Below, one piece after another: positions 6,393-60,560 of a stretch of 64,000 nucleotides of DNA; the first letter of the stretch is position 1; the number at the start of each line of letters is the position of its first letter. The notes below the pieces were generated by a model. The model made no database searches, was not told the DNA's origin, and was given only the letters and a program-made list of their open reading frames with translations. The translations under genes were made by a program, and so were the position numbers. Source of the stretch: Azolla caroliniana (taxonomy: Eukaryota > Plantae > Polypodiophyta); assembly GCA_043228905.1 (NCBI GenBank), contig JBHGNT010000014.1, forward strand, positions 6,572,001-6,636,000. Reading direction: 5' to 3'.

Positions 6393-6397
6393 CAATT

Positions 6398-15199: not shown

Positions 15200-15297
15200 A
15201 ACGAGGATCACGCCTAAACGGCAATTTTTGTAATATTGTTAGTATTTTGTAAGTCGTGGGTCCGACGGACAAGGTCCTGTCCCACGGGCGTGCCAGG

Positions 15298-15754
15298 TGT
15301 TGTCCAGAGGACAGAAATGTAAAATTAGGAAATTAGCAAACGCCGAGTCCGAGTATCACGGGCCACCGATGGCTCGGCTGTGTATTAGGGGAAAAATTAT
15401 TTAAACGAGGAGCAGTACCTTAGAGGAGAGGGAGAAGAAAACTATAGGCGGAAGCACTAGCTTAGTCATTCGAGATTAGATAAACTCGTAAGGTCACCGG
15501 CCATAGGCCGTGTTCTGTAATCTTTTCTGCCATAGTAATATATCTTATTTGTGCTTAGTTTTGCTGCATGAGTCTGTGCTTTGATCCATACCTATGAGTT
15601 TCACGCCGCCACGTCTATCAAGACCTCGCTAGTGTTTTCTCTCTGAGCCCTGTATCTCTCTCGACGCCTCTGTTACGAGCCTTCACGTACCACACCCTTG
15701 AAGACTGATAGACGCAGATCTATCGAAGGTGTTCACCCAAAGGAACGGGTAACA
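15298..15754 (+). repeat. 3' LTR of Gypsy I
   Basis: Direct repeat of 5936-6392, followed by TSD CCGAA. Confidence 0.95.
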
Positions 15755-16289
15755 CCGAACAGAATGATACAACATTGCAATAGAAGCATAGAAATAGAAT
15801 AGAGATGGAGATTAAATAGAGATGAAGACCATACAAAGAGTATGCACCAAAACCGGAGACCACACCTTCATTCATGAAAAACAACCCGTACTTACAAACA
15901 TGCTCAGAGAGTATCTTATATACAAAGCCCTTTATTCCTCTAATAATGGTAGAGGGTTGACCAAGCCGAATAGAATGATACAACATTGTAATAGAAGCAT
16001 AGAACACAGGGTATGCACCAAAACCGGAGACCACACCTTCATTCATGAAAAACAACCGGCACCTACAAACATGCTCAGAGAGCATCTTATATACAAAGCC
16101 CTTTATTCCTCTCATAATGGTAGAGGGCTGACAAGAGTACAATCGGCTCATTTATGAGCATTGAATTCTAACTTTACTAACTTCTAACTTAATTAGATTC
16201 TATCTTTAATAGTGCTAGTGAACCGAGTTGAGCTTGGTATATGAACACTCCCCCTCAAGCTCAAGTATGGTGTCAGCTTTTGGCTTACA

Positions 16290-17785: not shown

Positions 17786-18376
17786 TGTCGTGAAGATTTT
17801 CGGCAACGGTGTGAAAATCACTTGGAACGGATAATATCGAGAAGGTGCAATATGCACACATATGAAAGGGGCGATGGTTACACTCGTACGTTAGCATGTT
17901 GTAAATATGAACAAAATGAGAACCTCTAAGGCCTAGTAGCATTTTCGTGCATACCAAGGGATGGTGCAAGTAAGGTTTGAACCTTGCACCTCCAAGTTAG
18001 GACACAATTGACTTACCATTAGGCTAAGTTGTTTCTTTAAGGTAAGTTTTTATCATTGTATTTTTCACATGTAAATGGTCATACATGAGAGCTTGAATGA
18101 GTGACATGGTCATCATGCATCAGATGTAATGCATGAGTGCCAAATGACAATCATGCATTGAATGCATTCCATGCATTGTATGCATGTCTTGTACCCTCAC
18201 ATGCATCATATGCATGGGGGCATCTATAAAAGAAGGGAAGAAAAAGAAATGGGTATGGAATCAAGCTATGTATTGAATCAATATCTTAATAAGAAAAAAC
18301 CTAGTTATCTTATTGGTGATGTGTCTTGTTTCTCAACATTGAAGTCAGGGGTTCAAACCCAGAATTGGAATTTTCG

Positions 18377-18409
<33 letters not shown>

Positions 18410-18440
18410 GCCACATTAGTGCGTCACTTTGGCTACGACA
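17786..18440 (+). mobile_element. Probable solo LTR of an unrelated family
   Basis: Inverted termini TGTCGT...ACGACA, TATAAAA at ~18225, (CT)n/(CA)n tract. Flanks ATCAA/ATTTC do not form a clean TSD. Confidence 0.45.
17962..18032 (-). other. tRNA-derived sequence (A box, B box, CCA end); SINE-head-like or tRNA pseudogene
   Basis: Minus strand reads TAGCCTAATGGTAAG...GTCCTAA...GCAAGGTTCAAACCTTAC...GCACCA. Stems are imperfect. Confidence 0.6.
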
Positions 18441-18896
18441 ATTTCATTTCGTGTGGTCATTCACTCTATCTCTGAAATTCTCGTCAAGAAGGAAATAGCA
18501 CCGGCAAAGATTGTTTCATTGTTGTCGCTGGCCGCAAAAACGTTGCACACCACCACATTACCGCCCCCTATACATCAATCCACTGCACTGTTGACTCTAG
18601 TTTGGGTGCGTCTTCGACAACAAAGAACAACCCGAAAATAAAGCTAAATGGCCAATTCATCTCCTCCATAACCACTAACGGATAGAGGCCCGATGCTTGT
18701 CCGCACCTGTGTGACATGCACATCACGACGTTTGGCACGTGTGTCACGTACCACGTGTCATCGACTTGGATAATCGACTGATTAGTTCGATTGGATAACT
18801 AAGATCCAACCTAGTGATCGTCAAATAAATTAGGCTTCGACAATTTGCCGGAACTGTGTCTCGTCACATGTTGATGCCGAATTGTGGCAAAGCTTG

Positions 18897-19135: not shown

Positions 19136-20271
19136 TACCAGAGTGAAGGGGGAGTTTGTTAGGAAACAGGTCCCTCGAAATGGGTAGAGTACAAGCCACA
19201 TCGGATGGCGTCTATAGGTAACTCGGCCGAGGCCGAAAAATCGACTGACCCATAAGCAATCGTTAACTGATTCGACCAAATCCGAGTGCACTATAATTGT
19301 AAATTTAGCATTAATATGCCCTTAGTGGGCTATATTTGTAAATAACTCATATTGTGTATATGAGTATAAATATCCTTAGGGAAAGTAGTTAGAGTGTATA
19401 ATTATCATTGTTGTGAAAAGTTATAGTGAGTCGTGGCCTCTGTAACTAGAGTGGGAGAGTAAGAGAGTGTGTGAGTAACTCTATAGTCGTCTGTGGATGA
19501 AGAAGAGCTCAAGATCATTGCATTGAACCTTCTTGTTTTATTCCTCTTATTATAGTGATATAGTTCGGAGTTTGTGGACTCCCATGGTTTTTCCCGTGTA
19601 GGGTTTTCCACGTAAAATATTTGTGTGTCTGTACTTTTGGTTTCTTTTTGTTTGTGTACTATCATTTTCGATCTTTGCACCCGCATATGCATACATATCA
19701 ACCGATTGTGGCCAGTAGGATCCTCAACAAACTAGTTTTAGAGCGATGGACGAACATTTTGGTGGAATATTCAAGTTGACCAGCTCCAACTAATCAGTCT
19801 GGAAGTCGACGATGAGAGACATGCTCGTATGCAGAGGCTTATGGTTGCCGGTGCAGTACAACAAGAACAAACCTGACAAGATCGATGCATCTAAAGGTGA
19901 CGACATACATAAGGTGTTTTATAGACATGAGTCTTCACAACTGTCATGATATGATGCTCCAAAAGGATTTGAACCCATGACCTTGTGCTACAAGGGTTGA
20001 ACCCTTACCATTAAACTATAAATTGTAATACGAAAAATTTTACTTTCATTTATTATTTCACTATAGGAAATTCATGTATATTCCAGATTACTCTAGAACA
20101 TTCTAGAAACTTCAGGAGTACTCCTCACAGTACTATAAATAGAGGCACATGACATTATTCAGAACCACTTCGATTCAACGCCAGTCTTAAACCTCCTAGC
20201 TGTTCTTGTATCTTTCTTCATATAATATAATATACTTCTTGTTGTCATCCTTCTCTCTCTCTCTCACCTTC

Positions 20272-25946: not shown

Positions 25947-28034
25947 CCTTCTCGTGATTCTCACACACTCTTTCCTTTGTTAGTACTAATTCTCATATCT
26001 TCTTATCCCCCCTGTCCTTCATACAAATCCTCTTATCCTTCATTCCTCCAATACTATGGTGTTGAGTGGACAAGCTCAACCGGATCCGGATCCAGATCAA
26101 AGTCTGGAATGAAGAACCGGATCGGTGTCCGGATGGTATCCAGAACCAGGATTCGGATTGGATTACAACCGGTAGGTCGTAAGACGCCTACGAATCTAGC
26201 CTAGTACGTAGGCATATTTTTAGGAGTCAGTGTCAATCGCTCGTATGAGCATTGAAGTACATGTCAGTACTTCTGTCAGTCTGTGTAAGGACTTGTATAA
26301 AAGTGCTCACTAAGCACATTGTATATATAAAGCGTTATTATTTTGAATTGAGTTGATGCTATTATGCTCTCTCTGTCTCTCCCATGAACTGTGTATTCTA
26401 AGCTTCCATTAAACCTGTGTTTATTCTCTATTGCTATCCGGTGCAACCGGTTTTGTCAAACCTTCCGCATATTAACTTTCACATGGCATCAGAGCGTGAG
26501 GATTGAGAACCTCTACTGTGGACGAGATTTCCAAAGACAAACTCTAACTTCCGAAAAAGCACAGACCGAAAAGAAGGAAGATATGGACCGAAAAGCACAG
26601 ACGGAAATGCTCGACTGGAGCAATTATGGATCCTAGTCATGTAAAATGCACCAGTACCTGCTTGGGCATAAATACATGACCTACGTGGAAGGAGCAAATG
26701 TAGCAACGTTGGATTCAACACACAAGGATTTCACGGTATGGGAGCAAGGAGCAAGCAGAGTGTTGTATTGCCTTGCATCCTGTATGCATGACCAGATGGT
26801 CGGCTACATCAGGGATGCAAAAACGCTGAAAGAGGCCTGGGAAAATCTCTAGAAGATTTTCGCCGCAAGTACCACAACTCGGAAGTTACAACTCCGGCAA
26901 GAGCTCAATAGTATCCGGTAATGGGACATGTCGGTCACCGACTACAACACCAAGATGAAGGAGATCTGTGACGCGCTCGGTTCCATCAACGTGATGGTGG
27001 ACAAGGAAGAGATGGTTCAGATCTGCCTTGGTGGTCTAGTACAATGGTACGGGCCAAACCGGACAACGATTTGTACCCGGGAGAAACCACCATTCTTCTT
27101 CGACCTGCAATCTATGTTGAGTGGGTCAAGGACCACTCAATCTGACAACCGGATGTTGTACACGGAGGCGGATCGGCCCGTGGGCATGGAGGGCATGGTG
27201 AGTTAGCAGGCAATAATGTCGGCCGGCAAGAGCAGAACCGGAGGCACAAAGATAGTGTCGACAAAAGTTCCAAACCCTCCACAAGTAGGGGGAGTCAAGG
27301 CGGTGCCGGGAGCCGTCAAGAGAAGACTGCGGACTATTGGTATTGTGGCCAAAAGGGCCACAAAGAGAGTGAGTGTTGGAAGAAGCGCGTGGATTCGGAT
27401 AAATCCGGTTCTGGTAAGGCCGGACAGTGGAACCAACATAGCTCCCACTACACAGAAGGATAGAAAGGATTTGGAACCGGAAAGACCAGAAAAGGGCCAA
27501 CCTTTGTGATGAAACACAAGGGGAACTCGATGAAGAAGACCACTTCCGAATCAGAAGAAGTGTGGTCATTGACTCCGGAGCATCTAACGATATGACGAGT
27601 CAGGTAGAGTGGTTCTTGTCAGGAATAGTACTAAGACAGAGAAGGAATTAGTACTAAAAGAAGTATTAGTACTAAGAGAGGTGAAGAACTCTCGAGAGAA
27701 GGAAAGAGTGAGTGAGAGAGAGGGAGAGAGAGATCGAGAGAGAGAGAGAGTGATGATAAGAAAAGATATATATTATGTGAAGAAAATGTATAGTAGCTAG
27801 GAGGCTTAAGACTAGTGTTGAACCGATTTGGTTCGAAATAATGCCTTGTGCCTCCTTTTATAGTGTTCTAAGGAATACTCCTGAAGTTTCTAGAATGTTC
27901 CAGAGAAATCTGGAATATACATCAATTTTCTATAATAAAACATAAATGAAAAATAATATTCTACGTATTACAATGTATAGTCTAATGGTCAAGAGCTCGA
28001 CCCATGTAGCATAAGGTCATGGGTTCGAGTCTTG

Positions 28035-31000: not shown

Positions 31001-31435
31001 GTTGACCCTTGGGTTTGTCGACACCGGATTTCTCTTGTTCTCCAATCTATGTCTGGGTTGGAACTCGAACCACGGTAATCCTAAAACTATGGGATGTTCT
31101 GGGATACTAATAATATTAAATGATACTACACATGCTAAGTTATCTAGGACAATATTAATGGGCTCTGACTCTTCTATGATATTTCCGGAAGCAATGGGAC
31201 GTCCATCAATGACTACTACAGAGGCTGGACACTGGAGTTTTCTTAGGGATATCTTATGAGCTTGAGCAAATTTCTTATCCATAAAGCAAGAGTTAGCTCC
31301 GGAATCTAGGAGTGCTAGGACATGTACTGGAGGGGTACTTTTAGTACTAACTATTACTTGGGCTACGAACACATCACTAACTTGCTTAGAGGGAATGGAA
31401 CCACTAATGGGCTGCACAGATCTAGGGCTGTCCAA
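28035..31435 (-). pseudogene. Pol of chromovirus B (frameshifted, chromodomain truncated)
   Basis: PR LLDSGA, RT YLDD, RH EADASD, INT IALDFITDLP and chromodomain start EYEVAAILD, spread over several frames. Confidence 0.9.
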
Positions 31436-31461
31436 CCAAACGGCTCCTATTTTGGCTGGAC

Positions 31462-32613
31462 TTAGTCGTTTAACTCTTCTTCTAACTGACTAAGGACATC
31501 AAATCTGTTTGCTAGATCTGGGCTATTAGTACTATTAGGACTATCAGATATCCCTACTGAAATAGGCTCGGGTTTAGTACAATTAGAACTATCGATTATT
31601 TGGTTTACCTGTCTTCTTGGCCTATGGGGGCAATTTATTGCAATATGTCCTGGTCCACCGCAGTAAAGACATAGTCGATTTGTACGGCGTCGTTGCTTTT
31701 CTTCTTCGGATAATGGCCCTCGACGACGTGTAGTGTCAATCTCCATCGGAGTCGGAGTATTCGCTGGAGGCGCATTATATGACTCCCTCGGAGAAGGTCT
31801 TGATACCACTGAGGCGTAGGTGGGCTTTGATCTTGCCCTCGGCATTTGTAGCTGTCGTTCCGAACGTCGCTCAAAGAGGCGGTTGTCACATCTCACCGCA
31901 CGACTGATTGCTTCTGTTAAGGACTTTGGCTCTTCGGGGAAGGTCAAGAGTAAATCCTTGACGTCATTGTGTAAACCATAACAGAATTGCTCCATCAATG
32001 CTTGATCATCCCAAGGGATATCGGCAGCGAGTAGGTGAAAATCTGCAGCGTATGCAGAGGCTGGACGGTCACCTTGGCGTAATTGCCGAATTTTGTTGAT
32101 TGCGGTCCTGATGCTGTCAGTATCTCCGAAACATGCTTTAAACTCACCTAGAAACTCTTCAAAATTGTTGAGTAACGGAGATTCCTTTTCTAATAGTGGA
32201 GCGAACCATGCCAACGCTGAGCCACTTAACAAAGTGCCTACTAAACCCACTCGTGATGCATCGGTGGGATATCGGGAAGGATGCATTTGAATAACTAATC
32301 GTACTTGGTTAAGGAACCCTCTAAACTGCGATCGCGTTCCATCGAACTTCGTGGGAAGGCCAATCTTGGGTTCTTTATGAATCCCTTGTGTTCCGGGCCC
32401 TTGTTGTTGCATCGCTACGATGGTGGCTTCGAGTTGTTGCACGCGTAACGCAAGTTCCCCATGCTGTTGTTGCGTTTGCTGCTTTTCTAAGGAGATTTGC
32501 TGAAGATCCCCCAACAACCGTTGGTTTTCTTGTTCCAAAGCATGGAACTTCTCTTTCAAGCATTGAAATTCCGAGAAAACAGATTGATATTCTTCAGCGC
32601 TAACAATGGCCAT
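31462..32613 (-). CDS. Gag of chromovirus B (383 aa, open)
   Basis: EPKIGLPTKFDG, PTPMEID and CLYCGGPGHIAINC motifs; near-identical to 53485-54654. Confidence 0.88.
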   Translation of the reverse strand: MAIVSAEEYQSVFSEFQCLKEKFHALEQENQRLLGDLQQISLEKQQTQQQHGELALRVQQLEATIVAMQQQGPGTQGIHKEPKIGLPTKFDGTRSQFRGFLNQVRLVIQMHPSRYPTDASRVGLVGTLLSGSALAWFAPLLEKESPLLNNFEEFLGEFKACFGDTDSIRTAINKIRQLRQGDRPASAYAADFHLLAADIPWDDQALMEQFCYGLHNDVKDLLLTFPEEPKSLTEAISRAVRCDNRLFERRSERQLQMPRARSKPTYASVVSRPSPRESYNAPPANTPTPMEIDTTRRRGPLSEEEKQRRRTNRLCLYCGGPGHIAINCPHRPRRQVNQIIDSSNCTKPEPISVGISDSPNSTNSPDLANRFDVLSQLEEELND

Positions 32614-35600
32614 GGGATGAAAGAAAAGAGGAATAAGAGATTAGTAGGAAATGAGGGAGACAGAAGGTAAGGAAAATCGGTTCAAACTGTCAGGAACAAT
32701 ACTAAGACAGAGAAGGAATTAGTACTAAAAGAAGTATTAGTACTAAGAGAGGTGAAGAACTCTCGAGAGAAGGAAAGAATGAGTGAGAGAGAGGGAGAGA
32801 GAGATCGAGAGAGAGAGAGAGAGATGATAAGAAAAGATATATATTATGTGAAGAAAATGTACAGTAGCTAGGAGGCTTAAGACTGGCGTTGAACTGATTT
32901 GGTTCGAAATAATGCCTTGTGCCTCCTTTTATAGTGTTCTAAGGAATACTCCTGAAGTTTCTAGAATGTTCCAGAGAAATCTAGAATATACATCAATTTT
33001 CTATAATAAAACATAAATGAAAATAATATTCTACGTATTATAATGTATAGTCTAATGGTCAAGAGCTCGACCCATGTAGCATAAGGTCATGGGTTCGAGT
33101 CTTGCCATATCATGACAGTTCTTGTTTCTAGAGAGGGTGGAGCAACTAGGAGTTGTCAAAAACGGAGATGACACTCCTCACCAAATCATGCATGTCTGAG
33201 AAGTTCCCTTGAGTCATGTTGGGCAAAAGGGGAACCTTATGAATGAGCTTCACGTCCCAACAATCACAAAGAACTTGGTGTCGGTCGGACAGATCGTCGA
33301 CCAGGGGATGCAGGTGCAGTTAATGTACCTCGGGTGCTTCACCGAGGAAGAGGGCCAAGTCATTGTGCAAGGGCGCCAAGATGGGAGGGAGGGTGTTTAT
33401 CCTTGACATTAACGACATTGGCATCGCTATGTTCACAAAAGGGCAGAAGCTCGAATCGGATATTGACCTGTGGCACTAGCGGATTGGCCACGTCAACTAC
33501 CGGAGGCTTCAGGACCTGTAATTGAAACAAGTTGTTTCCGGATTGCCAAAATTTAGTGGCCGAAAGGCCCAAATTTGTGAAGCCTGCCAACGCGGGAAGC
33601 AACACCGGCTTCCATTCCCCACTGAAAGAAACCAGAGCCAGAACAAGCTCAATGTAATACATTCGGACGTATGGGGACCGACATAGAACGTTAGTCTTGG
33701 TGAGAGTCGATATTTCGTTACCTTCATCGACGACTACAACCGGCACACGTGGATCTACCTCATCGAGAAGAAACACGAAGTTTTCGATTGTTTCCGGAAC
33801 TTGTAGAGTTTAGTTGAATGGGAAATGGAAAGGAAGATCAAGTGCATGTGGTCGGATGGTGGAAAAGAATACTTTTCTGGCCAATTCAAACGGTATGGGT
33901 ATAACAAGTACATGGCGCATCACTATGTGTACATGACGAAGGTGGCGGAAGTGCATGAGCCAGAGAGCTATGCAGTAGTGGCAAAAGATGCACAATAGCA
34001 TGCCGCTATGGAGGAAGAGATGCGGGCACTTGATGCCAACAACACATGGGACCTGGTTGACCCTCCCCAACATTGCAAATAGATCGGTTGTAAGTGGGTG
34101 TACAAGGTGAAGTATAATGTTGATGGTTAGGTCAACCGGTACAAGGCCCGGTTAGTGGCCAAAGGATACGTGCAGACCCACGAAATCGACTACGACGAGA
34201 CTTTCGCTCCGGTAGCGAAGATGACGACAGTTCGTGTGGTGCTAGCGGTTGCTACAGCAAGGGGATGACAACTTCACCAAATGGACGTGAAGAATGCATT
34301 TCTTCAAGGCGATCTTGAAGAAAACAGGTCTACATGATCCAAGCCCTCCGTTTCTAGTCAGAGAAGAACAAGTCGGTAGTCAGCCGACTCATAAAGTCCC
34401 TTTACGACTTGAAGCAGGCCCCCGTGCTTGGAATTTGAAGATCACGCACCGGTTGCGTAAGATGGGCTTTGCGGCCTCCAAGCCGAACTCCTCATTATTC
34501 ATCCGGAAAGGTCCGGACGGTCCGGTATGTATTCTGTTATATGTGGATGATCTAGTCATCACTGGACCCAGACTTGCTGAAATCAATCGAGTGAAGTTCC
34601 AACTGTCGGACGCATTCGAAATGAAGGACCTGGGAGACCTTCATTACTTCCTTGGGATCGAAGTGATCCACACCCCTGACGGCATATTGTTGTCCCAACA
34701 AAATTATGTGTTGAATATGTTGTACAAGTTTGGTATGATGATTTGCAGACCGATCTTGACACCCCTGGACCAGAACCTAAAGCTTCATCCCGACTCTGAA
34801 CCGGCCTGCGATGAGAAACTGTTTCGACAAATCGTCGAAAGTCTTATTTATTTGATGATCACCCGACCTGCCATTAACTATCTAGTCGGAGCAATAAGTC
34901 AGTTCATGTATAAGCCGACTATGGAGCACCATTTGTGCGCGCACTGAATATTGAGGTATGTTAGCGGCAGTAAGGACCAGGGACTGTTATACCGATGTGG
35001 TATAACCGAGAAGCTAGTCGGATATACAGATGCTGACTGGTCCGGAGACACGTTGGATCGACAATCCACTTCCGGATTCATGTTCTCTACTGGTAGCACG
35101 AATGTTGCATGGAGCAACAAAAAACAAACAAATGTGGCTCTATCGAGCACTGAGGCTGAGTATTGGGGCGCTACTGTTGCCATCTGTGAAGCCATTTGGC
35201 TTCATCAACTACTGTGAGACCTTCGGATCGAAGTAACGACTCCGATCACGATCTACTATGACAACATGAGCAACATGCAGCTGGCCAAGAACCCCGTGTT
35301 CCATGCTTGGACGAAGCACATAGAAGTACATTATCACTTTGTACGCGAGCGGGTCCGAAACGGTGAAATAGAACTCCGGTATGTTCGGACGGATCGATAG
35401 GTTGCCGACATCTTCACTAAGGCCCTTGGGACTGACAAGTTGCAACACTTCTCGGAGATGCTTGGTTTTCAACATCTCTACATACCTCACTTGAGGGGGA
35501 GAAAGGAGGAAATCATAAAGGCCGGTAATGGCACTGGAGAGAAGGAAACTGGAACCGGGGGAGACAAGAAGAAAAAGGATGCCGAGACAACTGAAGAAGT

Positions 35601-38600: not shown

Positions 38601-40725
38601 ACTTTTGCACAATGGAGGCATTTTTTCGAAGTGTCTCCTCATCAAGTCACTATATTTAGTGATCATAAGAACCTTTCCTACTTCCAAAATGCTAGTGTGT
38701 TAAATAGACAACAAGCACGGTGGGCTCAGTTCCTCACTCGTTTCAACTTCAAGATTACATATCGTCCGGGCAAGCATCAGGGGAAGGCAGATGCATTATC
38801 ACAACGATCGTATCGAGCTCCTTGTCCCCGTGATCCAGTCTTTGACAATCAAAAGCAAGTAATCTTGGGCCAAGCACGACTTCAAGCAACCTAGGTTTTT
38901 GACACTCCATTGGATTCCCACATTATCGATACCATACGTGAAGATTTGAAGATAAATGTTTTTCCTCAAGCTATTCTAGATCAAATCGATCCCTCTCGAG
39001 CATCTTGTTCACGGTTACAACAACTAGATACGGATTATCGACAATTCAAATGTCATGATGGTTTACTCTTCTTTAAGAAAATTTTGTGTGTTCCCAATGG
39101 TTCTGTTCACCTTCAAATAGTACAAAATTTTCATGACACATACACAACCAGACATTTTGGTAGTACTAAAACATTGGATTTAGTACAATGATCATTTTGG
39201 TGCCGCATATGCGAAGATTTGTTGAAGACTATGTTCGACATGTGATACATGTTGCACAGCGAAGATGCCTAGGCATCATCCATATGGTTTGTTGGAGCCG
39301 TTATTGATCCCGAGCAAACCGTGGCAATCTATTTCTCTAGATTTTATCACAGATCTTCTGTATTCGAAGGGCTTCAATGCGATCTTAACAATGGTAGATC
39401 GATATACTAAATAATCAGTAGTTAAGAAACCACGGGAATTGTTATGTGTGAAGTGTTTCGACATCATGGTCTTCCTGACAGTATCGTGAGTGATTGTGGA
39501 CCTCAATTTGTCTCTAAATTTTGGAAGCATCTCTTCAAAATGCTCAAGGTCACTTCCAATCTCTCCTCCGGCTATCATCCCCAAACAGATGGAAAAGTAG
39601 AACGTACCAATCAAATGTTGGAACAATATCTTCGGTGTTTCCTAAACTATCAACAAATTGATAGGGTAGATATTCTACACTTTGTTGAATTTGCTTATAA
39701 TAATTCTATCCACTCTACTAGGGTTGCACCATTCTACGCTTATACTAGCTATCATCCTCGCTGGCGTGTGTTAGAAACTCATGAGTTACCCACAAATCCT
39801 AGCGCAGAGGATCATTTGGAGCGACTACGATGAATTCAGGCAGAACTATCTATCCATCCACATCGCGCCCAACAAACACAGAAGGACTATGCGGATCGTC
39901 ATAAGCTTCCATCCTCTTTTGATATTGGAGATCGAGTATAGCTATTATGATGGCACATCAAGACTACTCGACTGTGTGAAAAACTGGATTATTGACGGTT
40001 AGGCCCTTTCCATATTAACGTAAAAATTAATGATGTCACTTTTCACCTTGATCTACCTCCACAACTATGCATACATTTGGTATTTCATAGTTCTCTTCTA
40101 GAACCCTATCAGGACAACACTCTCCCAGATCATATTACACCACTGCCACCCCCGATCTAACTTGAAGATGGACCTGAGTATGAGTTTGCTTCCAACCTCG
40201 ATTCCAAGATAGTTCAGAACAAGCTCTATTATTTAATCGATTGGCTAGGATATAGTCCAAGCGAGCGTACTTGGGAACCAGTGACGAATTTGGTGAATGT
40301 TCAAGCTCTTCTTGAAGACTTCCATCGTGAATATCCAAACAAACCAGGTACTCAATCAAAGACGATTCGTAACACTCGTTGCTTAAAGGGGGGGATAGTG
40401 TCATGATATGGCATGGTATGGATCCAAAAGGATTTGAACCCATGACCTTGTGTTACAAGGGTTGAGCCCATACTATTAAACCATGAATTGTAATACCAAA
40501 AATATTATTTTCATTTATTATTTCACTATAGGAAATTCATGTTTATTCCAGATTACTCTGGAACGTTCTAGAATATTTATGAGTACTCCTGACAGTACTA
40601 TAAATAGAGGCACATGACATTTTTCAAAACCAATTCGGTTCAATGTCAGTCTTAAGCCTCCTAGTTGTTATTGTATCTCTCATATAATATAATATACTTC
40701 CTGTTGTCATCATTCTCTCTCTCTC

Positions 40726-50730: not shown

Positions 50731-52948
50731 TGTAAAAAGAAGCGTGCGGAAGCAGGTATGAAGACCGAACAGAAGGAAGGAAACTCAGGTTCAATGGAGA
50801 GCTTGAGCTTAAACGGTATACGCGGGAGAGACAGAGAGAGTGAGAGAGAAGACAGAAAAAATATATTCAACAATAATACTTAGTCTATACATAAGACATG
50901 CTCAGTGAACACTTTTATACAAGTCCTAGGAGGACTGACCGAAGTACTGACAGTACTTCAATGCTCATCAAGAGCTCCTACACTAACTCCCAAATATATT
51001 CCTCACGGAATATCTTTCCTAAGGACCTCCCGGTTTATGTACTCGGCCTAACCGATCCGGTCCTCGGCTTCTTCAGCCGATCCGGCCGATGTTGAGCTTG
51101 TCTCTCAACACTCCCCCTCAAGCTCAACTCGAGGCTCTTCGGGATCCTCGGGGTCACAGCTCCGGTTCCTCCTGGCTTCACGCCTCGCTCGCGCTCCTCG
51201 ACCTGTTCGACTCGGCGTGCTTTGACCCTTCCGGTCGGCTTGTCTGCTCATGCGGCCCTTATCAGCTCTTCTGTTGTTGCGTTGTCGACACTTCTTCTGC
51301 TGCCTTTTCTTCCGCTTGGGCCTCGGTTGATTCAGCGTGTCTGAATCAAACATCCGAACCGACTCGGTTGCCTCCGATCGGTTTTCGCTCTCATCCGAGT
51401 TGGCTGTCTCCAACTCGTCTTCGATTTTCTCGCCCTCGATGGCGTCATCTCCCCTATGCGAGGTTGGCTTCGGCTCTTTCCTTCGGTTGCTCCCCTTCTG
51501 TCTGCTTCCGGACTTTTCCGTGGGTCCGCCCTCGGCTTCTTCAGTCGATCCGATGTCGAACTTGTCAAACGACTCGGTGTCGCGGTGTTCGCTCCTTTCC
51601 TGCTGCCTTGCTTGGTCGTTCGGGACTGTTCTCCCCCTCAAGTTCGGCACATCAAGGTGACGCAACCCGAGCGCACCTGAGAATTGCCACAACTTGTCCA
51701 GACGAAGAGGCTTCGTGAAGATGTCGGTAGTCTGCCGATCCGTCGGAACGTACTAAAGTTCGACTTCACCGGAAAGGACACGCTCACGGACAAAATGGTA
51801 GTGCACCTCAATGTGCTTGGTCCGTGCGTGGAAGACGAGGTTCTTCGCGAGCTGGATGCTACTGAGGTTGTCGCAGTAGATCGTCGTCGGATTTGACACC
51901 TCCTCTTGCAGGTCCGTAAGTAGCCGCTTCAACCATATGGCTTCATATGTCGCGATAGCCGCTCCTCGGTACTCACCTTCGGTGCTTGACAGGGCAACTG
52001 TCGGCTGCTTCTTACTGCTCCACGCGATCGCGGCACTCCCGAGGGAGAACGCGTATCCGGACGTGGATCGACGATTGGCGGCATTGCCAGCCCAGTCAAC
52101 ATCGGTGTAGCCGACTAACTGCTCGGTTGCACCGGTCCGATATAGTAGTCCGCGGTCCTTAGTGCCGCTTACGTACCGCAGTACGCGTTGCGCACACTGA
52201 AGGTGCTCCTCGGTAGGTCGCGCCATGAACTGACTGATCACTCCGACCGGATAACTGAGGTCGGGTCGGGTGATGGTCAAGTATATGAGACTTCCGACAA
52301 TTTGTCGGAACCTCGTCGGGTCGCATACCTTTCCCGTATCGGGACGAAGCTTGACGGTTCTGTCCAGAGGAGTCGAGACGGTCTTACAGTCGGCCATCCT
52401 GAATTTGAAGAGCATACTCAGCATGTAGTGACGTTGGCTGATCAATATGCCTTCGGGGGTACGGATCACTTCGATCCCGAGGAAGTAATGAAGGTCCCCC
52501 AGATCCTTCATGTCGAACGATGCCGCAAGTTGGAGCTTCACGCGGTCGATTTCACCTAGGTCGGCGCCGGTGATGACCAAGTCATCAACATATAGTAAAA
52601 TACTAACTGGTCCGAGTCGACCTTTCCGGATGAATAGGGAAGAGTCCGATTTTTACGTGGCGAAGCCCATCCGACGCAGTTGTTGCGTGATCTTCGCGTT
52701 CCAGGCATGCGAGGCTTGCTTCAGTCCGTAAAGGGACTTCTTCAGTCGGCATACTGCCGAGGAGTTCGTTCCGGAGTGAAATCCAGGGGGTTGTACCATG
52801 TACACCTGTTCCTCAAGGTCACCTTGCAGGAACGCATTCTTTACATCCATCTGATGTAAGTGCCACCCCTTGGCCGCGGCTACTGCGAGCAAAACACGGA
52901 CGGTCGTCATTTTCTTGACTGGCGCAAACGTCTCATCGTAGTCAATGC
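50731..52948 (-). mobile_element. Copia H (E-related), 3' half only: RT-RH-extension, PPT, 3' LTR 50731-51110
   Basis: Minus-strand [38 protein letters not shown]; PPT at 51111-51127. Confidence 0.9.
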
Positions 52949-53397
52949 TGTCATAACTAGACTCGAACCCATAACCTTTTGTTACACGGGTCGAGACTTT
53001 ACCATTAGGGTATGAATTGTAATTTGAAAGATATTATTTTCATTTAGGTTTTATTGGGAAATTGATGTATATTCCAGATTTCTCTGGAACATTCTAGAAA
53101 CTTCAGGAGTATTCCTGAAGACACTATAAAAGGAGGCGCAAGGCATTAGTTCGAACCAAATCGGTTCAACGCCAGTCTTAAGCCTTCTAACTACTGTTGT
53201 ATATCTTCCGTCATATAATACATATATCTTTCGCATCATCATTCTCTCTCTCTCTCTCTCTCACTCATTCCTTCTCTCAAAGTTCGACACCTCTCATAGT
53301 ACTAATCCTTCTCTGTCTTAGTACTATTCCCCAACAATAGTACTAATCCTTCTTTTAGTACTAATTCCTTCTCTGCCTTAATAGAGTTCCTGACAGT

Positions 53398-53409
53398 TTG
53401 AACCGATTT
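53398..53409 (+). promoter_or_regulatory. Self-priming PBS (Tf1-type)
   Basis: TTGAACCGATTT is the exact reverse complement of LTR 53158-53169 AAATCGGTTCAA, ~33 nt downstream of TATAAAA (53125). Confidence 0.85.
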
Positions 53410-53484
53410 CTGTCTACTAGTCTCCCTCTTCCTTCTGTCTCCCTCCTTTCCTACTAGTCTCTTATTTCCCTTTTCCTTCATCCC

Positions 53485-54654
53485 ATGGCCACCGTTAGCG
53501 TTGAAGAGTATCAATCCGTTTTCTCGGAATTTCAATGCTTGAAAGAGAAGTTTCATGCTTTGGAACAAGAAAATCAACGCTTGTTGGGGGATCTTCAGCA
53601 AATTTCCTTAGAAAAGCAGCAAACGCAACAACAGCATGGGGAACTTGCGTTACGCGTGCAACAACTCGAAGCAACCATCGTAGCAATGCAACAACAAGGG
53701 CACGGAGCACAAGGGATTCATAAAGAACCCAAGATTGGCCTTCCCACGAAGTTCGATGGAACGCGATCGCAGTTTAGAGGGTTTCTTAACCAGGTACGGT
53801 TAGTTATTCAAATGCATCCGTCCCGATATCCCACCGATGCATCACGAGTGGGTTTAGTAGGCACGTTGTTAAATGGCTCAGCATTAGCATGGTTCGCTCC
53901 GCTACTAGAAAAGGAATCTCCAGTACTAAATAATTTTGAAGAATTCATAAGTGAGTTTAAAGCATGTTTTGGAGATACTGACAGCATAAGGACTGCAATC
54001 AACAAAATCCGGCGATTACGCCAAGGTGACCGTCCAGCCTCCGCATATGCTGCAGATTTCCGCCTACTCGCCGCCGATATCCCCTGGGATGATCAAGCAT
54101 TGATGGAGCAGTTCCGCTATGGTCTACGCAACGATGTCAAGGATTTACTCTTGACTTTCCCTGAAGAGCCAAAATCATTAACAGAAGCAATCAGTCGAGC
54201 GGTCAGATGTGACAACCGCCTCTTCGAGCGACGTTCGGAACGACAATTTCAGATGCCGAGGGCAAGATCCGAGCCTACCTATGCCTCAGTGGTAGCGAAA
54301 CCTTTTCAAAGGGAGTCACATAATGCGCCTCCAGTAAGTACTCCAACTCCAATGGAAATTGACACTACACGTCGTCGTGGGCCGCTATCGGAGGAGGAAA
54401 AGCAACGACGCCGAACAAACCGATTATGCCTTTATTGCGGTGGACCAGGGCATATCGCGATAAACTGTCCCCATAGACCAAGAAGGCAGGTAAACCAAGT
54501 CATTGTTAGTTCTGACTATACTAAACCCGAGTCTATTTCAGTAGGAATCTCTGATAATCCTCATAGTCATAATAGTCCTAATAGTACTAATAGTCTGAAT
54601 CTCGCAAACAAATTTGATGTCCTTAGCCAATTAGAAGAAGAGTTAAACGACTAA
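53485..54654 (+). CDS. Gag (389 aa) of chromovirus C
   Basis: N-terminal coiled coil, EPKIGLPTKFDG capsid motif, CLYCGGPGHIAINC knuckle. Confidence 0.93.
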   Translation: MATVSVEEYQSVFSEFQCLKEKFHALEQENQRLLGDLQQISLEKQQTQQQHGELALRVQQLEATIVAMQQQGHGAQGIHKEPKIGLPTKFDGTRSQFRGFLNQVRLVIQMHPSRYPTDASRVGLVGTLLNGSALAWFAPLLEKESPVLNNFEEFISEFKACFGDTDSIRTAINKIRRLRQGDRPASAYAADFRLLAADIPWDDQALMEQFRYGLRNDVKDLLLTFPEEPKSLTEAISRAVRCDNRLFERRSERQFQMPRARSEPTYASVVAKPFQRESHNAPPVSTPTPMEIDTTRRRGPLSEEEKQRRRTNRLCLYCGGPGHIAINCPHRPRRQVNQVIVSSDYTKPESISVGISDNPHSHNSPNSTNSLNLANKFDVLSQLEEELND

Positions 54655-54700
54655 GTCCAGCCAAAATAGGAGCCGTTTGGTTGGACAGCCCTAGATCTGT
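54642..54700 (+). promoter_or_regulatory. -1 ribosomal frameshift signal
   Basis: G TTA AAC heptamer at 54642-54648, 6-nt spacer, 11-bp stem GTCCAGCCAAA/TTTGGTTGGAC. Pol is in the -1 frame, open from 54627. Confidence 0.8.
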
Positions 54701-57700
54701 GCAGCCCATTAGTGGTTCCATTCCCTCTAAGCAAGTTAGTGATGTGTTCGTAGCCCAAGTAGCAGTTAGTACTAAAAGTACCCCTCCAGTACATACCTTA
54801 GCCCTTCTAGATTCCGGAGCTAATTCTTGCTTCATGGATAGGAATTTTGCCCGAGCTCATCAGATATCTCTCAGAAAGCTCCCATGTCCAGCCTCAGTAG
54901 TAGTCATTGATGGTCGTCCCATTGCTTCTGGTAATATCATAGAAGAGTCGGAACCCGTTAATATTGTCCTAGATAACTTAACATGTGTAGTATCATTTAA
55001 TATTATTAGTATTCCAGAACATCCCATAGTTTTAGGATTACCATGGTTCGAGTTACATGACCCAGACATAGATTGGAGGACAAGGGAAATCCGGTTGCGA
55101 CAAACCCAAGGATCTACCCAGAAGGTTGCAACCATTTCGCTACGTCAGTTGCGTGAGGAAGGGCGCAAGGAGGAAATGTTTCTCTTTGCAATATCAGTAC
55201 AACCCTCCAGCACCACCAAAGAGGAGTCCACCGTTCAACTTCCCGAGAAGTATCGTCAGTATGCTGATGTGTTCGATAAAGTACAAGCCAACACACTTCC
55301 TCATCATCGGCCGTACGACTGCGCCATCGACTTACAACCGGGAAAAGAGCCGCCATGGGGGCCGATCTACAATTTGTCACCAACCGAGCTAGAAGTCCTT
55401 CGAGCCTATATAGAGGAGAATTTGGAGAACGGTTTCATTCGGCATTCGAAATCTCCAGCCGGCGCACCCATTTTCTTCGTCAAGAAAAAAGATGGCTCGC
55501 TTCGACTCGTTGTAGATTACCGTGGCTTGAATAAGGTCACAGTAAGAAATAGGTATGCTCTTCCCCTTATCTCAAGTCTTTTAGAACGGATCAACGGTGC
55601 CAGGTTCTTCACGAAGATAGACTTACGAGGAGCCTATAACCTCGTACGGATCCGACCAGGAGATGAATGGAAGACCGCGTTTCGCACCAGATATGGGCAC
55701 TTCGAGTATACGGTCATGCCGTTCGGACTCACTAATGCGCCGGCAGTCTTCCAGCACATGGCGAATGATATATTTCGAGATCTCTTGGATGATTTTTTGA
55801 TCATCTATTTGGATGATCTACTGGTTTATTCAAAGACCCAAGAAGAACATGATTCTCATGTACTATTAGTACTAAAACGACTTCGAGAACATGGTCTGTA
55901 TGCAAAGTTAGAGAAATGTAGTTTCGGGTGCAACCAAGTGGAGTTTCTCGGCTATGTCATCTCCTCAGAAGGCATATCTATGGACCCAGCCAAGGTCAAA
56001 ACGGTGATAGAATGGCACACTCCGCGTTCGGTGCGGGATGTGCAATGCTTCCTAGGCTTTGCAAATTTCTACCGGAAGTTCATACAAAATTACTCAAAAA
56101 TTGTGCTGCCTCTCACACAGCTCACCAGGAAGGGACAATCATTCATTTGGTCTAAAGAGACGGACATGGCTTTCGAGAGTCTTAAGAAGGCGTTTACATC
56201 AGCTCCAATTTTAGGTCATGTGGATCCGGAAAAACCATTCATTATCGAAGCTGATGCATCGGATTTCGCATTGGGGAGCATTCTGTCACAACAGGGTAAC
56301 GACGAGAAGCTACATCCTGTGGCTTTCCACTCCCGTAAGTTTGACGCCGCCGAAATCAACTACGAAATTCATGATAAAGAGCTATTAGCAATAGTTGATT
56401 CTTTTATGCAATGGAGGCATTTCCTGGAGGGATCTCCTCATCAGGTCACTGTATTCAGTGACCACAAGAACCTTGCCTACTTTCAAGATGCTCGTGTACT
56501 GAATCGACGTCAAGCTCGGTGGGCCCACTTCCTCACACGCTTCGACTTCAAAATTACATATCGTCCGGGGAAGCACCAAGGGAAGGCAGATGCATTATCA
56601 CGGCGTTCGTATCTAACACCACGTCCCGGTGAGCCAGCTTTCGATAACCAGAAGCAAGTAATCTTGGGTCCAGCACGACTGCAAGCAGCACAGGTCTTTG
56701 ACATGCCCGTGGATTCCGACATTACCAATACTATACGTGAGGACTTGAAGACTGACGCTTTCGCCCAAGCTATACTAGCACAAATTGACCCCTCTCGAGC
56801 GTCATGTTCACAATCACAATCACCAGGTACGGATTATCGGCAATTCAAATACTGTGATGGATTACTCTTCTTTAAAGAACTTTTGTATGTTCCTAATGGT
56901 TCTTGCCGCCTTCGAGTAGTACAAAACTGCCATGACACATATACAGCAGGACATTTTGGTAGTACTAAAACATTAGATTTAGTACAACGATCATTCTGGT
57001 GGCCCCATATGCGACAATTTGTCGAAGATTTTGTTCGGACTTGCGATACATGCTGCAGAGCGAAAATGCCAAGACATCATCCATATGGTTTATTAGAACC
57101 ATTACCAATTCCAAGCAAGCCATGGCAATCCATTGCTCTTGACTTCATTACAGATCTTCCAGTCTCTAAGGGATTCAGTGCGATTCTCACAGTGGTGGAT
57201 CGATATACGAAGATGGCTCATTTCTTACCATGTACTAAAGAAATATCTAGTGAAGACACCGCCGAAATTGTCATGCGGGAAGTATGTCGGCATCATGGAC
57301 TCCCTGATAATATCATCAGCGATCGTGGACCCCAGTTTGTGTCAAAATTCTGGAAGCACCTTTTTAAAATGCTGAAGGTCACTTGTAACCTCTCCTCCGG
57401 CTACCACCCACAAACCGACGGTCAAGCCGAACGAACAAATCAAACACTGGAGCAGTATCTGCGGTGCTTTCTCAACTATCATCAGAATGACTGGGCAGAT
57501 ATTCTTCAGTTCGCCGAATTTGCCTATAATAACGCTATCCACGCATCGACTAAAGTCACGCCATTCTACGCTTATACGGGATATCATCCCCGGTGGTGTG
57601 TCCTTGAAACCCCAGAAGTGTCCACAAATCCTTGCGCGGAGGATCGTTTGGAGCGGTTACGCAAGATACAAGCGGATTTATCTACTCAACTCCAGCAAGC

Positions 57701-58238
57701 TCAACAATCACACAAGGACTACGCAGATCGTCATCGACTTCCATCCAGTTTTAACATTGGAGATCGGGTGTGGCTGCTACGACGACACATCAAGACTACT
57801 CGCCCATGTGAGAAGTTGGATTATCGGCGATTAGGTCCTTTCCGTATTATCGGGAAGATTAATGATGTCGCTTTTCGTCTCGAGCTACCTCCGCAACTTC
57901 GGATACACCCGGTGTTTCATAGTTCTCTCCTCGAACCCTATCACGAGAGCACTATCCCAGGACGTACTATACAACCTCCACCTCCTATCGAGCTCGAAGA
58001 TGGACCTGAGTATGAGGTCGCTGCCATCCTCGATTCCAAGATTGTTCGCAACAAGCTCTACTATCTAGTCGATTGGCTAGGATATAGTCCCAGCGAGCGT
58101 ACTTGGGAACCGATCGAGAATGTGACCAATGCTCGTGCTCTTCTAGAAGACTTCCATCGACGATATCCCGAGAAACCGGGTCCTCAATCCAAAACGACTC
58201 GTGAAACTCGTCGTTTTAAAGGGGGGATAGTGTCATAA
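54681..58238 (+). CDS. Pol (PR-RT-RH-INT-chromodomain) of chromovirus C, uninterrupted
   Basis: LLDSGA, YLDD, EADASD, HHCC-D-D-E integrase, GPF motif, chromodomain EYEVAAILDSKIVRNKLYYLVDWLGYSPSERTWEP. Confidence 0.96.
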   Translation: MDSPRSVQPISGSIPSKQVSDVFVAQVAVSTKSTPPVHTLALLDSGANSCFMDRNFARAHQISLRKLPCPASVVVIDGRPIASGNIIEESEPVNIVLDNLTCVVSFNIISIPEHPIVLGLPWFELHDPDIDWRTREIRLRQTQGSTQKVATISLRQLREEGRKEEMFLFAISVQPSSTTKEESTVQLPEKYRQYADVFDKVQANTLPHHRPYDCAIDLQPGKEPPWGPIYNLSPTELEVLRAYIEENLENGFIRHSKSPAGAPIFFVKKKDGSLRLVVDYRGLNKVTVRNRYALPLISSLLERINGARFFTKIDLRGAYNLVRIRPGDEWKTAFRTRYGHFEYTVMPFGLTNAPAVFQHMANDIFRDLLDDFLIIYLDDLLVYSKTQEEHDSHVLLVLKRLREHGLYAKLEKCSFGCNQVEFLGYVISSEGISMDPAKVKTVIEWHTPRSVRDVQCFLGFANFYRKFIQNYSKIVLPLTQLTRKGQSFIWSKETDMAFESLKKAFTSAPILGHVDPEKPFIIEADASDFALGSILSQQGNDEKLHPVAFHSRKFDAAEINYEIHDKELLAIVDSFMQWRHFLEGSPHQVTVFSDHKNLAYFQDARVLNRRQARWAHFLTRFDFKITYRPGKHQGKADALSRRSYLTPRPGEPAFDNQKQVILGPARLQAAQVFDMPVDSDITNTIREDLKTDAFAQAILAQIDPSRASCSQSQSPGTDYRQFKYCDGLLFFKELLYVPNGSCRLRVVQNCHDTYTAGHFGSTKTLDLVQRSFWWPHMRQFVEDFVRTCDTCCRAKMPRHHPYGLLEPLPIPSKPWQSIALDFITDLPVSKGFSAILTVVDRYTKMAHFLPCTKEISSEDTAEIVMREVCRHHGLPDNIISDRGPQFVSKFWKHLFKMLKVTCNLSSGYHPQTDGQAERTNQTLEQYLRCFLNYHQNDWADILQFAEFAYNNAIHASTKVTPFYAYTGYHPRWCVLETPEVSTNPCAEDRLERLRKIQADLSTQLQQAQQSHKDYADRHRLPSSFNIGDRVWLLRRHIKTTRPCEKLDYRRLGPFRIIGKINDVAFRLELPPQLRIHPVFHSSLLEPYHESTIPGRTIQPPPPIELEDGPEYEVAAILDSKIVRNKLYYLVDWLGYSPSERTWEPIENVTNARALLEDFHRRYPEKPGPQSKTTRETRRFKGGIVS

Positions 58239-58677
58239 CTAGACTCGAACCCATAACCTTTTGTTACACGGGTCGAGACTTTACCATTAGGGTATGAATT
58301 GTAATTTGAAGGATATTATTTTCATTTAGGTTTTATTGGGAAATTGATGTATATTCCAGATTTCTCTGGAACATTCTAGAAACTTCAGGAGTATTCCTGA
58401 AGACACTATAAAAGGAGGCGCAAGGCATTAGTTCGAACCAAATCGGTTCAACGCCAGTCTTAAGCCTTCTAACTACTGTTGTATATCTTCCGTCATATAA
58501 TACATATATCTTTCGCATCATCATTCTCTCTCTCTCTCTCTCTCACTCATTCCTTCTCTCAAAGTTCGACACCTCTCATAGTACTAATCCTTCTCTGTCT
58601 TAGTACTATTCCCCAACAATAGTACTAATCCTTCTTTTAGTACTAATTCCTTCTCTGCCTTAATAGAGTTCCTGACA

Positions 58678-60560
58678 GCCTCTGCCCAGAAGCCATCCGA
58701 CAGTCCGGAGTGTTGGAGCATGGAAACTATCCGTTCTTGGATTGTCCGATTCATGCGTTCTGCAATCCCGTTTTGCTCCGGACTGTGTGGTGCCGTAAAT
58801 TCACGTCGGATGCCGCGTTGTCGGCAGAATTTGACGAATTCTTCTGATTTGAACTCTCCCCCATTGTCGGTCCGAAAGCATTTCAGTTTTCGGTCAGTTT
58901 GATTTTCTACCATAGCGAGCCAATCGGAGAAGATCGAGAAGACACGATCTTTGGTGCGAATTGGATAAGCCCACACCTTTCGAGTCGAATCGTCAATAAA
59001 ACTGACGAAGTAAGAGGCACCGCCGAGAGACTGATGCGGCATTGGGCCACAGACGTCCGAGTGGACTAAATCGAGAGGTCTCGTTTCTCTTGGTGCTGAT
59101 GTCGGGTGTGATGCGGCTGCTTGTTTGCCATACTGGCAATGTTCGCAGAATTGATGGTCTGAGAAGGAGAGTTTAGGGATGTATCCGGCTCTAGATAGGT
59201 GCGTAATGCCGGCCTTGCTAAGGTGTCCTAATCTTTTGTGCCATAGTGATGACACAGGAATATCCACCAAAAACAGGTTACCCTCTCTGAGCGTAACATG
59301 TAACGGATACAGTGAGTGTATCTTGGGTCCTCTAGCAAGCAGGAGGTTCCCCCTGTGGAGTGTCCACCCTCCCGAAGAAAAACCGGCACGAATGCCGTCT
59401 TCGTCTAGTTGTCTGACTGAGATCAATGGCCTTGAGAGCTCGGGTACATGTCGGACATTGTGAAGTACAAGTGTAGAGCCACCTGCAAGGTTGAGCTCTA
59501 CTGTGCCGATTCCAATGATGTCACAGTGTTGCGAGTTGCCGACGCGAACTGAGTCGGAGTGACGGATCGTATATTGCCGAAATTGGGATCGATGAGGAGT
59601 CACGTGAAATGACGCGCCCGAATCTAAGAGCCATGTGCTCGATTCTTCAGTCGTGAGCAGAACTTCTGATCCGACTGGATTTTCGATTGATAGTATATTC
59701 GGGTCGTTTGGTAGCACATCAGCTGAGAAGCTGACGTAATTGATCTCCTCATGCCGGCCACTCTTCTTGTCTGATTTCTGAGACTTGTCGTTCTTGTTCT
59801 TGAGTGCGCGGCAGTCGGCTTTGATGTGTCCGGGTTTCTTGCAATAGTTGCAGATTCGATTATCCCGTGACTGGCTCCGTCTTCGCTGATTGTTCGGCTG
59901 CTGTGAGGAATCTCTTCCTCGTATGTTCGATCGTTCTGTCGAACCTTGTACTACATAAGCGTCGTCTGTTGAGTCTTTGGCGAAAGACTTTCTCCGAGCT
60001 GCTTCGGTCAGGATTGCGCTCGTGACTTCGGAGTATTTAACAGCCGTGGTTGACGCGTTGCACACGGTTGTGACGAAAGTGTCCCATGATGAGGGAAGGC
60101 TGCTCATGAGTATCATTGCTCTGAGTTCATCCTTGATTGCCGTCCCCTGAGATGAGATTTGGGAGCTTATGCTTTCGTACTCATTGAGATGTGCTTGAAC
60201 CGAATCTGATTCTTTCATCCGCAAGTTGTAGAGGCGCCGGATCAGAAACATCTTTGTTGCAGCGACCTTCTTTTCGTAAGTGTCCGACAGTGTTTTCCAC
60301 AGTTCGAATGCTGTCGTACACGATTGCACCGTAAAGTATACCGATTCCGATAGGTGCATCCGAATCGTGGCGCGGACGATTCTGTCCAGCTTCTGCCACT
60401 CAATTGGTTTGTATCCTTCTGGAGGTTCTTCATTTTCGATGGGATCGATTTGCCCCTTGACTATGAGATAGTCCTGCATTTGCTCCTTCCAGAAGTTGAA
60501 GTTCGATCCATCGAACTTTCGTAGACTCATTTCTGACGAGCCGGATGTTGATGCCATCAA
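58678..60560 (-). CDS. Copia K gag-PR-INT ORF, open until truncated at FWAEA by the chromovirus C LTR
   Basis: KFDGSNFNFWK, CNYCKKPGHIKADC, WLLDSGASFH, LVHSDVCGP, PEQNGIAER. Confidence 0.88.

Follow-up and report, generated by a model that had tools for sequence, protein, structure and literature searches.

Antisense tRNA-derived A-box/B-box cassettes in the LTRs of autonomous Gypsy elements of Azolla caroliniana: candidate docking sites for TFIIIC/TFIIIB

The window analysed here, a stretch of 64,000 nucleotides on a 21-Mb contig of the 523-Mb Azolla caroliniana assembly, is a nest of LTR retrotransposons (Table 1). Element C (52949-58677, forward strand, 5.7 kb) has an open gag and an open pol and is therefore autonomous. 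Its primer-binding site (PBS) is complementary to its own R and it has no PBS complementary to a tRNA, a self-priming arrangement, so that the autonomous carrier without a tRNA primer put forward in the original prediction for this window was borne out. A self-primer is likewise predicted in the related loci L224, L226 and L227. Elements B (27617-33117, reverse strand) and A (19942 to approximately 46094, forward strand, split by nested elements) each have a 5-bp target site duplication (TSD) and group with C, and the Pol II TATA box is conserved across the LTRs of all three. The first 13 bp of B's 3' LTR are missing (28022-28040), and with them the PPT and the last part of the chromodomain. 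In its Gypsy domain order, C-terminal chromodomain and self-priming, the last being typical of Tcn1 elements, the carrier agrees with the published Tcn1 criteria (PMC6317226); the assignment is made on these features, the Pol tree having been built without named reference elements. Tcn1 has been described from mosses and club-mosses, and Phygy, considered below, from Physcomitrella (PMC6317226). A Copia RT frame, like the kinds of element present, suggests a non-seed land plant. The named protein matches of the carrier Pol were fungal, vertebrate and algal Tf2-like proteins (42-65%), and the viral contigs searched contained no relatives.

Table 1. Positions of the carrier elements' features and of the cassettes in the window (positions 8-62 and the like are in tRNA numbering).
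Feature	Position	Strand	Remarks
5' LTR of C	52949..53395	+	447 bp, 99.8% identical to 3' LTR
Cassette, C 5' LTR	52959..53012	-	tRNA positions 8-62; 28.3 bits; E 3.7e-5
B-box, C 5' LTR	52959..52969	-	positions 52-62
Variable-loop motif AGGT(T/C), C 5' LTR	52973..52977	-	positions 44-48
A-box, C 5' LTR	53002..53012	-	positions 8-19; C instead of G at 10
AT-rich patch, C 5' LTR	53028..53057	.	16-45 nt upstream of A-box; predicted TFIIIB site
Pol II TATA box, C 5' LTR	53125..53131	+	113 bp from A-box; divergent to cassette; putative role
Predicted self-primer of C, near R start	53158..53169	+	12-nt complement of PBS-site sequence
PBS of C	53398..53409	+	complementary to C's own R start
gag ORF of C	53458..54654	+	stop to stop
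pol ORF of C	54627..58238	+	protease, RT, RNase H, integrase, C-terminal chromodomain
Polypurine tract (PPT) of C	58218..58227	+	
3' LTR of C	58231..58677	+	447 bp
Cassette, C 3' LTR	58241..58294	-	found by matrix and sequence-only model
5' LTR of B	32688-33117	-	
Cassette, B 5' LTR	33048..33102	+	element on - strand; part of long hairpin
3' LTR of B	27617-28034	-	truncated
Cassette, B 3' LTR (truncated LTR)	27978..28032	+	
Cassette, A 5' LTR	19965..20018	-	LTR starts 19942; 36.1 bits; E 1.6e-6
Cassette, A 3' LTR	40430..40483	-	LTR starts 40399; A-box damaged; T4 next
Antisense cassette, Phygy-like LTR	17973..18026	-	LTR starts 17786; 22.2 bits; E 0.008
TATA box, Phygy-like LTR	18225-18231		bracketed by two outward-facing cassettes (17786-18500)
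Sense cassette downstream of Phygy-like TATA	18306..18360	+	26.6 bits; E 0.02

Several further observations concern the elements themselves. No TSD is found around C (52944-52948 versus 58678-58682), and the Copia element that hosts C appears to be without the stretch between its integrase core and RT; C may therefore be a recombinant of two insertions. Just inside pol (54667-54864), five poly(A) reads from two runs skip 196 nt, and since the ends of the skip are not GT..AG this may be a deletion in another copy. Three poly(A) RNA-seq runs of about 12 million records each gave 101, 72 and 126 reads on element C, and 8, 10 and 21 reads on one Phygy-like LTR; no inference was drawn from these reads, which are mostly less than 95% alike and of unestablished strandedness, and such runs miss short Pol III RNAs. 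Element D (5936-15755) combines a PBS for tRNA-Arg with, at 15255-15297, where a PPT would be expected before its 3' LTR, a sense copy of the 3' end of tRNA-Arg.

All six LTRs of A, B and C carry an A-box and a B-box at tRNA spacing and antisense to the element, at positions within 3 nt of those predicted. In tRNA numbering the six cassettes span 54-55 nt from T8 to position 62, with GG at 18-19, AGGT(C/T) at 44-48 and the B-box at 52-62; the GG of the A-box reads AG in the 3' LTR copy of A. Fifteen tRNA genes of this assembly, which themselves score 25-45 bits, were used to build an A/B-box matrix; it ranked the six cassettes 1 to 6 in the window at 28-36 bits, against a best score of 19.1 in 40 block-shuffled windows and 13.3 in the reversed window. 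An independent sequence-only model of the host tRNAs returned the identical top six (E 1.6e-6 to 1.2e-3), two of them matched over their 3' part only. We conclude that the six antisense cassettes are genuine and beyond chance. No cassette was present in the window's Copia LTRs or in the LTR of element D (best score 13.8 bits).

The distribution of the cassette was followed through Pol. An alignment of Pol yielded 79 metagenome loci, chosen by protein and not by their boxes, of which 42 were testable at the LTR tip (24 were without the 3' end of pol, 8 without a PPT and 5 too short). A, B and C fall in a clade with support of 1.0, in which Pol identity to C is 66-85%, and in all eight of its testable members an antisense cassette scoring 21-32 bits lies 10-39 nt in from the LTR edge. 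Outside this clade, 33 of 34 testable relatives score at most 7.2 bits, so that the cassette belongs to one clade and not, as originally supposed, to every chromovirus LTR; L231, on another branch (54% identity), scores 19.2 bits at the equivalent place of its LTR. The sequence-only model recovered five of the eight clade members at E <=0.044 with default filters.

In eight deep lineages, pairwise identity was 0.75 in the B-box, 0.91 at positions 44-48 and 0.79 at the key A-box positions, versus 0.34 for the spacer and 0.33-0.41 for the flanks (composition baseline 0.27-0.37). This contrast is inflated by the anchoring of the alignment on the boxes and by the relatedness of the lineages, but selection of the loci went by protein, and the gap in scores is wide. 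Across the clade T8, G18, G19, A44-T47, G53-T55 and A58 are kept, AGGT (44-47) being invariant in 10/10 lineages, whereas positions 49-51 vary (0.44). Of the promoter positions that are invariant in tRNAs, 6/10 are invariant here, versus 0/83 positions of spacer and flanks. The span from position 8 to 62 is 54-56 nt in all lineages, which agrees with type 2 Pol III spacing. An AT-rich upstream patch is part of type 2 Pol III promoters (PMC13437025), and the patch 16-45 nt upstream of the A-box in the eight deep lineages (mean AT 0.88/0.82, versus 0.56-0.59 further in) mirrors the upstream AT of the host tRNA genes (0.73/0.80). Further into U3, 16 of 21 lineage pairs cannot be aligned (z under 3). 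Judged from these alignments, the promoter boxes of the cassette are under selection across deep lineages.

Within this genome, a pattern of PPT plus LTR start that ignores the boxes found 603 junctions, and 29 of the first 30 of these loci score at least 19 bits, as do 58 of 71 A-type LTRs located by their TATA box. The ratio of shared to private changes in own-genome A and B copies (100 copies picked regardless of their boxes, of which 95 were kept and 5 non-homologous rows dropped) was 24/59 (0.41) at the boxes versus 164/599 (0.27) in the rest of U3. With P 0.13 and a direction opposite to constraint, this leaves recent constraint on the boxes without support. The boxes are thus retained across deep lineages, as had been claimed for diverged subfamilies, but the comparison with neighbouring U3 among the genome's own subfamilies did not bear the claim out. 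Two kinds of tandem array were also encountered, one at L149:900-2370, in which units of approximately 260-310 bp consist of chromovirus LTR tip including the cassette, the other of tRNA genes (Arg, Lys, His, Trp) at G000:C1:25118108-25153535, C5 near 17.99 Mb, C12 near 9.87 Mb and C8 near 17.81 Mb. In addition, an antisense tRNA-like cassette lies in the protease-RT linker of pol at L222:6488-6540, L221:1010-1063 and L221:6334-6386; it is translated through in frame, and the three copies, 71-84% alike, retain the boxes.

The part of the tRNA gene that the cassette has kept is its promoter boxes. ARAGORN returned 0 matches on the window and so did not call the cassettes, and Rfam gave no tRNA match at E<=10 in either the window or a 201-bp stretch. 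A cloverleaf model matched four of the six at only 14-17 bits, weaker than the sequence-only model, so that the tRNA fold which might have been expected from the original prediction was not recovered. The anticodon, T and acceptor stems did not rise above partner shuffles (P 0.23, 0.55 and 0.71), covariation in the D-stem was weak (23/40 pairs, P 0.04), and the 15:48 pair is Watson-Crick in 2/10 lineages. U33 is a structural invariant of tRNAs that lies outside the promoter, and it is retained in 4/10 lineages. A functional tRNA gene was rejected as an identity for the cassette, given the lack of an ARAGORN or Rfam call and of an anticodon stem and the loss of U33 in most lineages. By its sequence the cassette is, in our assessment, a worn tRNA-gene body, derived from a tRNA and with its cloverleaf lost.

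Which tRNA it came from is ambiguous. Among the host tRNAs, A is closest to Thr, C to Arg and B to Ile or Thr, each scoring above 499 or 500 of 500 shuffles in a comparison set of 15 tRNAs of this assembly from which several isotypes are missing, and the cassettes do not point to a single tRNA source. Since the best match differs by copy, the proposed likeness to tRNA-Thr(UGU) is plausible for family A only; the CTTGTAA read as its anticodon loop occurs only in the 3' LTR of A, one base off the tRNA register and without a stem. Of the captured tRNA or SINE head that had been envisaged, the tRNA derivation was upheld by the matrix and the sequence-only model, but a free-standing SINE with this head was not found among 179 distinct matches in 779 kb of loci, a sample biased by having been fetched around these elements (176 of the matches were put in LTRs by BLAST and 3 are LTR-like by eye). 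The cassette may have arisen if, right after plus-strand priming, the template was switched to a tRNA, an origin that would yield both the antisense orientation and the position at the tip; alternatively, a SINE may have inserted antisense.

The cassette has a second carrier. A generic A/B-box pattern matched 1282 places in the genome, real tRNA genes counted in, and 0 in the control. Among the 100 matches listed, most belong to a Gypsy family unrelated to the chromovirus carriers, with LTRs of 1.0-1.2 kb, no chromodomain, a tRNA-Trp PBS and a 4-bp NCGN TSD. The last three are marks of Phygy (PMC6317226), and we call the family Phygy-like by feature criteria (short, no chromodomain, NCGN TSD). 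A TATA anchor of this family occurs 1436 times in the genome, and in 25 of the first 30 loci the TATA box is preceded, at 150-250 bp, by an antisense cassette. In seven Phygy-like cassettes the GG and AGGT are invariant, with identities of 0.75 in the B-box and 0.34 in the spacer. The TATA box was located in six long Phygy-like LTRs: cassettes upstream of it are antisense and those downstream sense, 9/9 pointing away from it, and three of these LTRs (the one at 17786 in the window, L027 and L368) bear cassettes on both sides. The LTR at 17786 is the only one of its kind in the window, and its two cassettes were missing from the original prediction. The chromovirus and Phygy-like lineages may have acquired the cassette by separate capture or by exchange. 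In a short non-coding element, L351:300-1010, a tRNA-Trp PBS and a PPT of the Phygy-like kind are separated by approximately 230 bp, and the LTR contains a tRNA-like cassette in sense; the element is a candidate Helenus-type TRIM.

We propose, at a probability of about 0.5, that the cassette is a docking site for TFIIIC/TFIIIB that keeps the LTR promoter open or shields it from silent chromatin. A tRNA-gene body would have been captured antisense into the U3 of an autonomous, self-priming chromovirus lineage. TFIIIC would bind the A and B boxes and place TFIIIB on the AT patch, facing the Pol II TATA box, and the docked factors would hold the Pol II promoter of the LTR open or set a boundary to silent chromatin. 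If Pol III RNA is made at all, that of the 5' LTR would head out of the element and that of the 3' LTR would cross the PPT in antisense. The outward orientation, correctly foreseen, is found in all chromovirus copies, which are antisense, and it would put the predicted TFIIIB site between cassette and TATA box and keep Pol III off the Pol II promoter. Binding of TFIIIC is strongly to be expected from the established role of the two boxes, and given such binding the odds lean towards a selected benefit that lies in local chromatin opening or a barrier and not in the RNA made. We favour docking because the boxes, their spacing and the AT patch are kept while fold, isotype and terminator are lost, and because the orientation is outward. 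In yeast, tRNA genes and TFIIIC sites are heterochromatin barriers (PMC1635290).

The same conservation of boxes and AT patch would also fit a working Pol III promoter whose antisense RNA of 60-130 nt over the U3 tip and PPT, or whose outward read-through, tunes silencing or replication. We regard this as rather unlikely. In the context of the 3' LTR, a T4 run lies at most 70 nt from the B-box in 8 of 11 chromovirus LTRs, with predicted RNAs of 63-134 nt (in C the first run is 46 nt past the B-box, within the end of pol), and the U3 of foamy viruses carries Pol III miRNA cassettes (PMC6950176). Within the LTR, however, a T4 run is present only in A-type LTRs, where it directly follows the B-box as predicted (19961-19964 in the 5' LTR of A), and in L224/L225, L226 and L227; B and C are without one, and L219, L221 and L228 have none within 400 nt. 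Neither sequence nor fold of the RNA is conserved (z +0.2 to -1.7 across seven foreign deep lineages), so that a conserved, terminated RNA of approximately 70 nt, as first envisaged, is not indicated. It is improbable, too, that the sense strand is what matters, with the 3' U3 of genomic RNA pairing with the D- and T-arms of host tRNAs and so bridging or packaging genomes as in Ty3. Orientation and place would suit such pairing, since in Ty3 the primer tRNA base-pairs with U3 through its T and D arms (PMC5371799), 12 contiguous nucleotides are common to C, B and host tRNA-Arg(UCU), and the conservation of 44-47 would be accounted for. Yet the elements self-prime, the best tRNA differs by lineage with runs of only 8-13 nt among 9 host tRNAs tested, positions 49-51 are free in the middle of the would-be duplex, cassettes in sense follow the TATA boxes of Phygy-like LTRs, and the AT patch is left unaccounted for.

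If the cassette were a neutral relic of a tRNA or SINE, handed down with the LTR, this would explain why the subfamilies of this genome show no extra constraint on the boxes and why ARAGORN and Rfam do not recognise the cassettes as tRNA. We give this reading little credence, as boxes and length persist while spacer and flanks are near the composition baseline and most lineage pairs cannot be aligned deeper in U3, and the pattern recurs in a second lineage. The cassette could also be a landing pad for integration, as Pol III genes are for Tj1 and Ty3, so that copies nest together. Tj1, a self-priming relative of Tf1, inserts just upstream of tRNA genes (PMC4600332), and in L351 one B-type copy sits between the cassette region and the TATA box of a Phygy-like LTR; against this, 0/15 upstream flanks of young C copies (approximately 1.5 kb, one side) contained a cassette or tRNA-like match, and the idea is very unlikely. 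The slimmest chance of all is given to a hairpin next to the PPT or the integrase end being the conserved unit, with the boxes incidental. The tip of B folds strongly on both strands (z about -5), as do several subfamilies of this genome (z -3.4 to -5.7), but the strong hairpin is absent from the 5' LTR of A and from the seven foreign lineages, and the distance to the LTR edge ranges over 5-39 nt. As a general conserved unit the hairpin is ruled out by the foreign lineages that do not have it; it may be an add-on of the B family.

Docking of TFIIIC/TFIIIB has difficulties of its own. C, the youngest element here, has a weakened A-box, the boxes of own-genome copies are not more conserved than other U3, and the pol-internal cassette of L221/L222 has no TATA box to protect. 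Docking would also leave the AGGT at 44-47, which is outside the textbook B-box, and the weak D-stem covariation unaccounted for. Furthermore, DNA methylation silences the clustered tRNA genes of Arabidopsis (PMC7544208), so that a barrier function within plant heterochromatin cannot be taken for granted, and most genomic copies of the cassette may be inert.

The closest known counterpart is Helenus (TRIMp3; Kojima 2024, PMC10886601), which likewise has tRNA-derived sequence in its LTR with conserved boxes A and B that is neither a functional tRNA nor a primer. Helenus elements, however, are non-coding TRIMs of 311-1263 bp with tRNA PBSs, and their tRNA part is in sense and serves as their own promoter (two LTRs), whereas the carriers here are 5.7-kb autonomous elements with gag and pol that self-prime and have an antisense cassette beside a Pol II TATA box. 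The cassette thus resembles the promoter part of Helenus, and on autonomy, orientation and priming it falls outside that group. The same paper remarks that 'not a few' Repbase LTRs have partial similarity to tRNA, with only TRIMs analysed further. Cassandra TRIMs are similar in having captured an internal Pol III promoter in a plant LTR, but theirs is 5S-derived (A, IE and C boxes), drives their own transcript and belongs to a non-autonomous element (PMC10886601). The foamy viruses share a Pol III unit in the non-coding U3 of an autonomous LTR retroelement; theirs makes a defined 111-128 nt dumbbell RNA with a terminator, whereas here fold and terminator are not conserved and the body is a tRNA relic (PMC6950176). 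The bipartite PBS of Ty3, where U3 of the genomic RNA complements the D and T arms of a tRNA (PMC5371799), and the tRNA-like U3-R sequence of HIV-1 (PMC11241228) are comparable in U3 complementarity to tRNA, but in both the match is to the element's own primer tRNA, and here there is neither a primer tRNA nor a single match. The yeast barriers are also A/B-box DNA proposed to act via bound TFIIIC/TFIIIB and not via RNA, but they are host loci, while here a mobile element carries the site and the barrier role is predicted (PMC1635290).

With respect to the carriers, the first shares its chromodomain, self-priming and 5-bp TSD with the Tcn1 chromoviruses (Neumann 2019, PMC6317226; Novikova 2010, PMC2864245), and the second shares the absence of a chromodomain, the tRNA-Trp PBS and the 4-bp NCGN TSD with Phygy (PMC6317226, PMC2864245). 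No tRNA-like cassette in an LTR is mentioned where these two papers, supplements aside, describe Tcn1 and Phygy. In the open full-text literature we found no account of conserved antisense A/B-box cassettes in the LTRs of Tcn1 or Phygy; annotations of this kind could exist in Repbase, in subscription journals or in the supplements to PMC6317226 and PMC2864245.

Pol III promoters in plant LTRs have so far been those of non-autonomous TRIMs, where they transcribe the element. Here, backward Pol III boxes are kept by full-length, tRNA-independent elements with a Pol II promoter, and in two unrelated lineages, which suggests that the element itself makes use of TFIIIC/TFIIIB in cis. The alignment of the cassettes shows which bases of a tRNA gene matter after tRNA function has been lost, including the unexpected AGGT at 44-47. 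Going beyond the single site, we would tentatively suggest that autonomous Gypsy elements of non-seed plants may repeatedly have captured tRNA-gene promoters as portable insulators, being expressible inside heterochromatin; TFIIIC/TFIIIB sites would then face outward beside the Pol II promoter, and on both of its sides in Phygy-like LTRs. If the cassette is an insulator, it would offer a testable answer to how chromoviruses in silent chromatin stay active and would be a source of short natural barrier elements for plants. If the suggestion of portable insulators is true, the host genome would also gain TFIIIC sites from thousands of dispersed copies.
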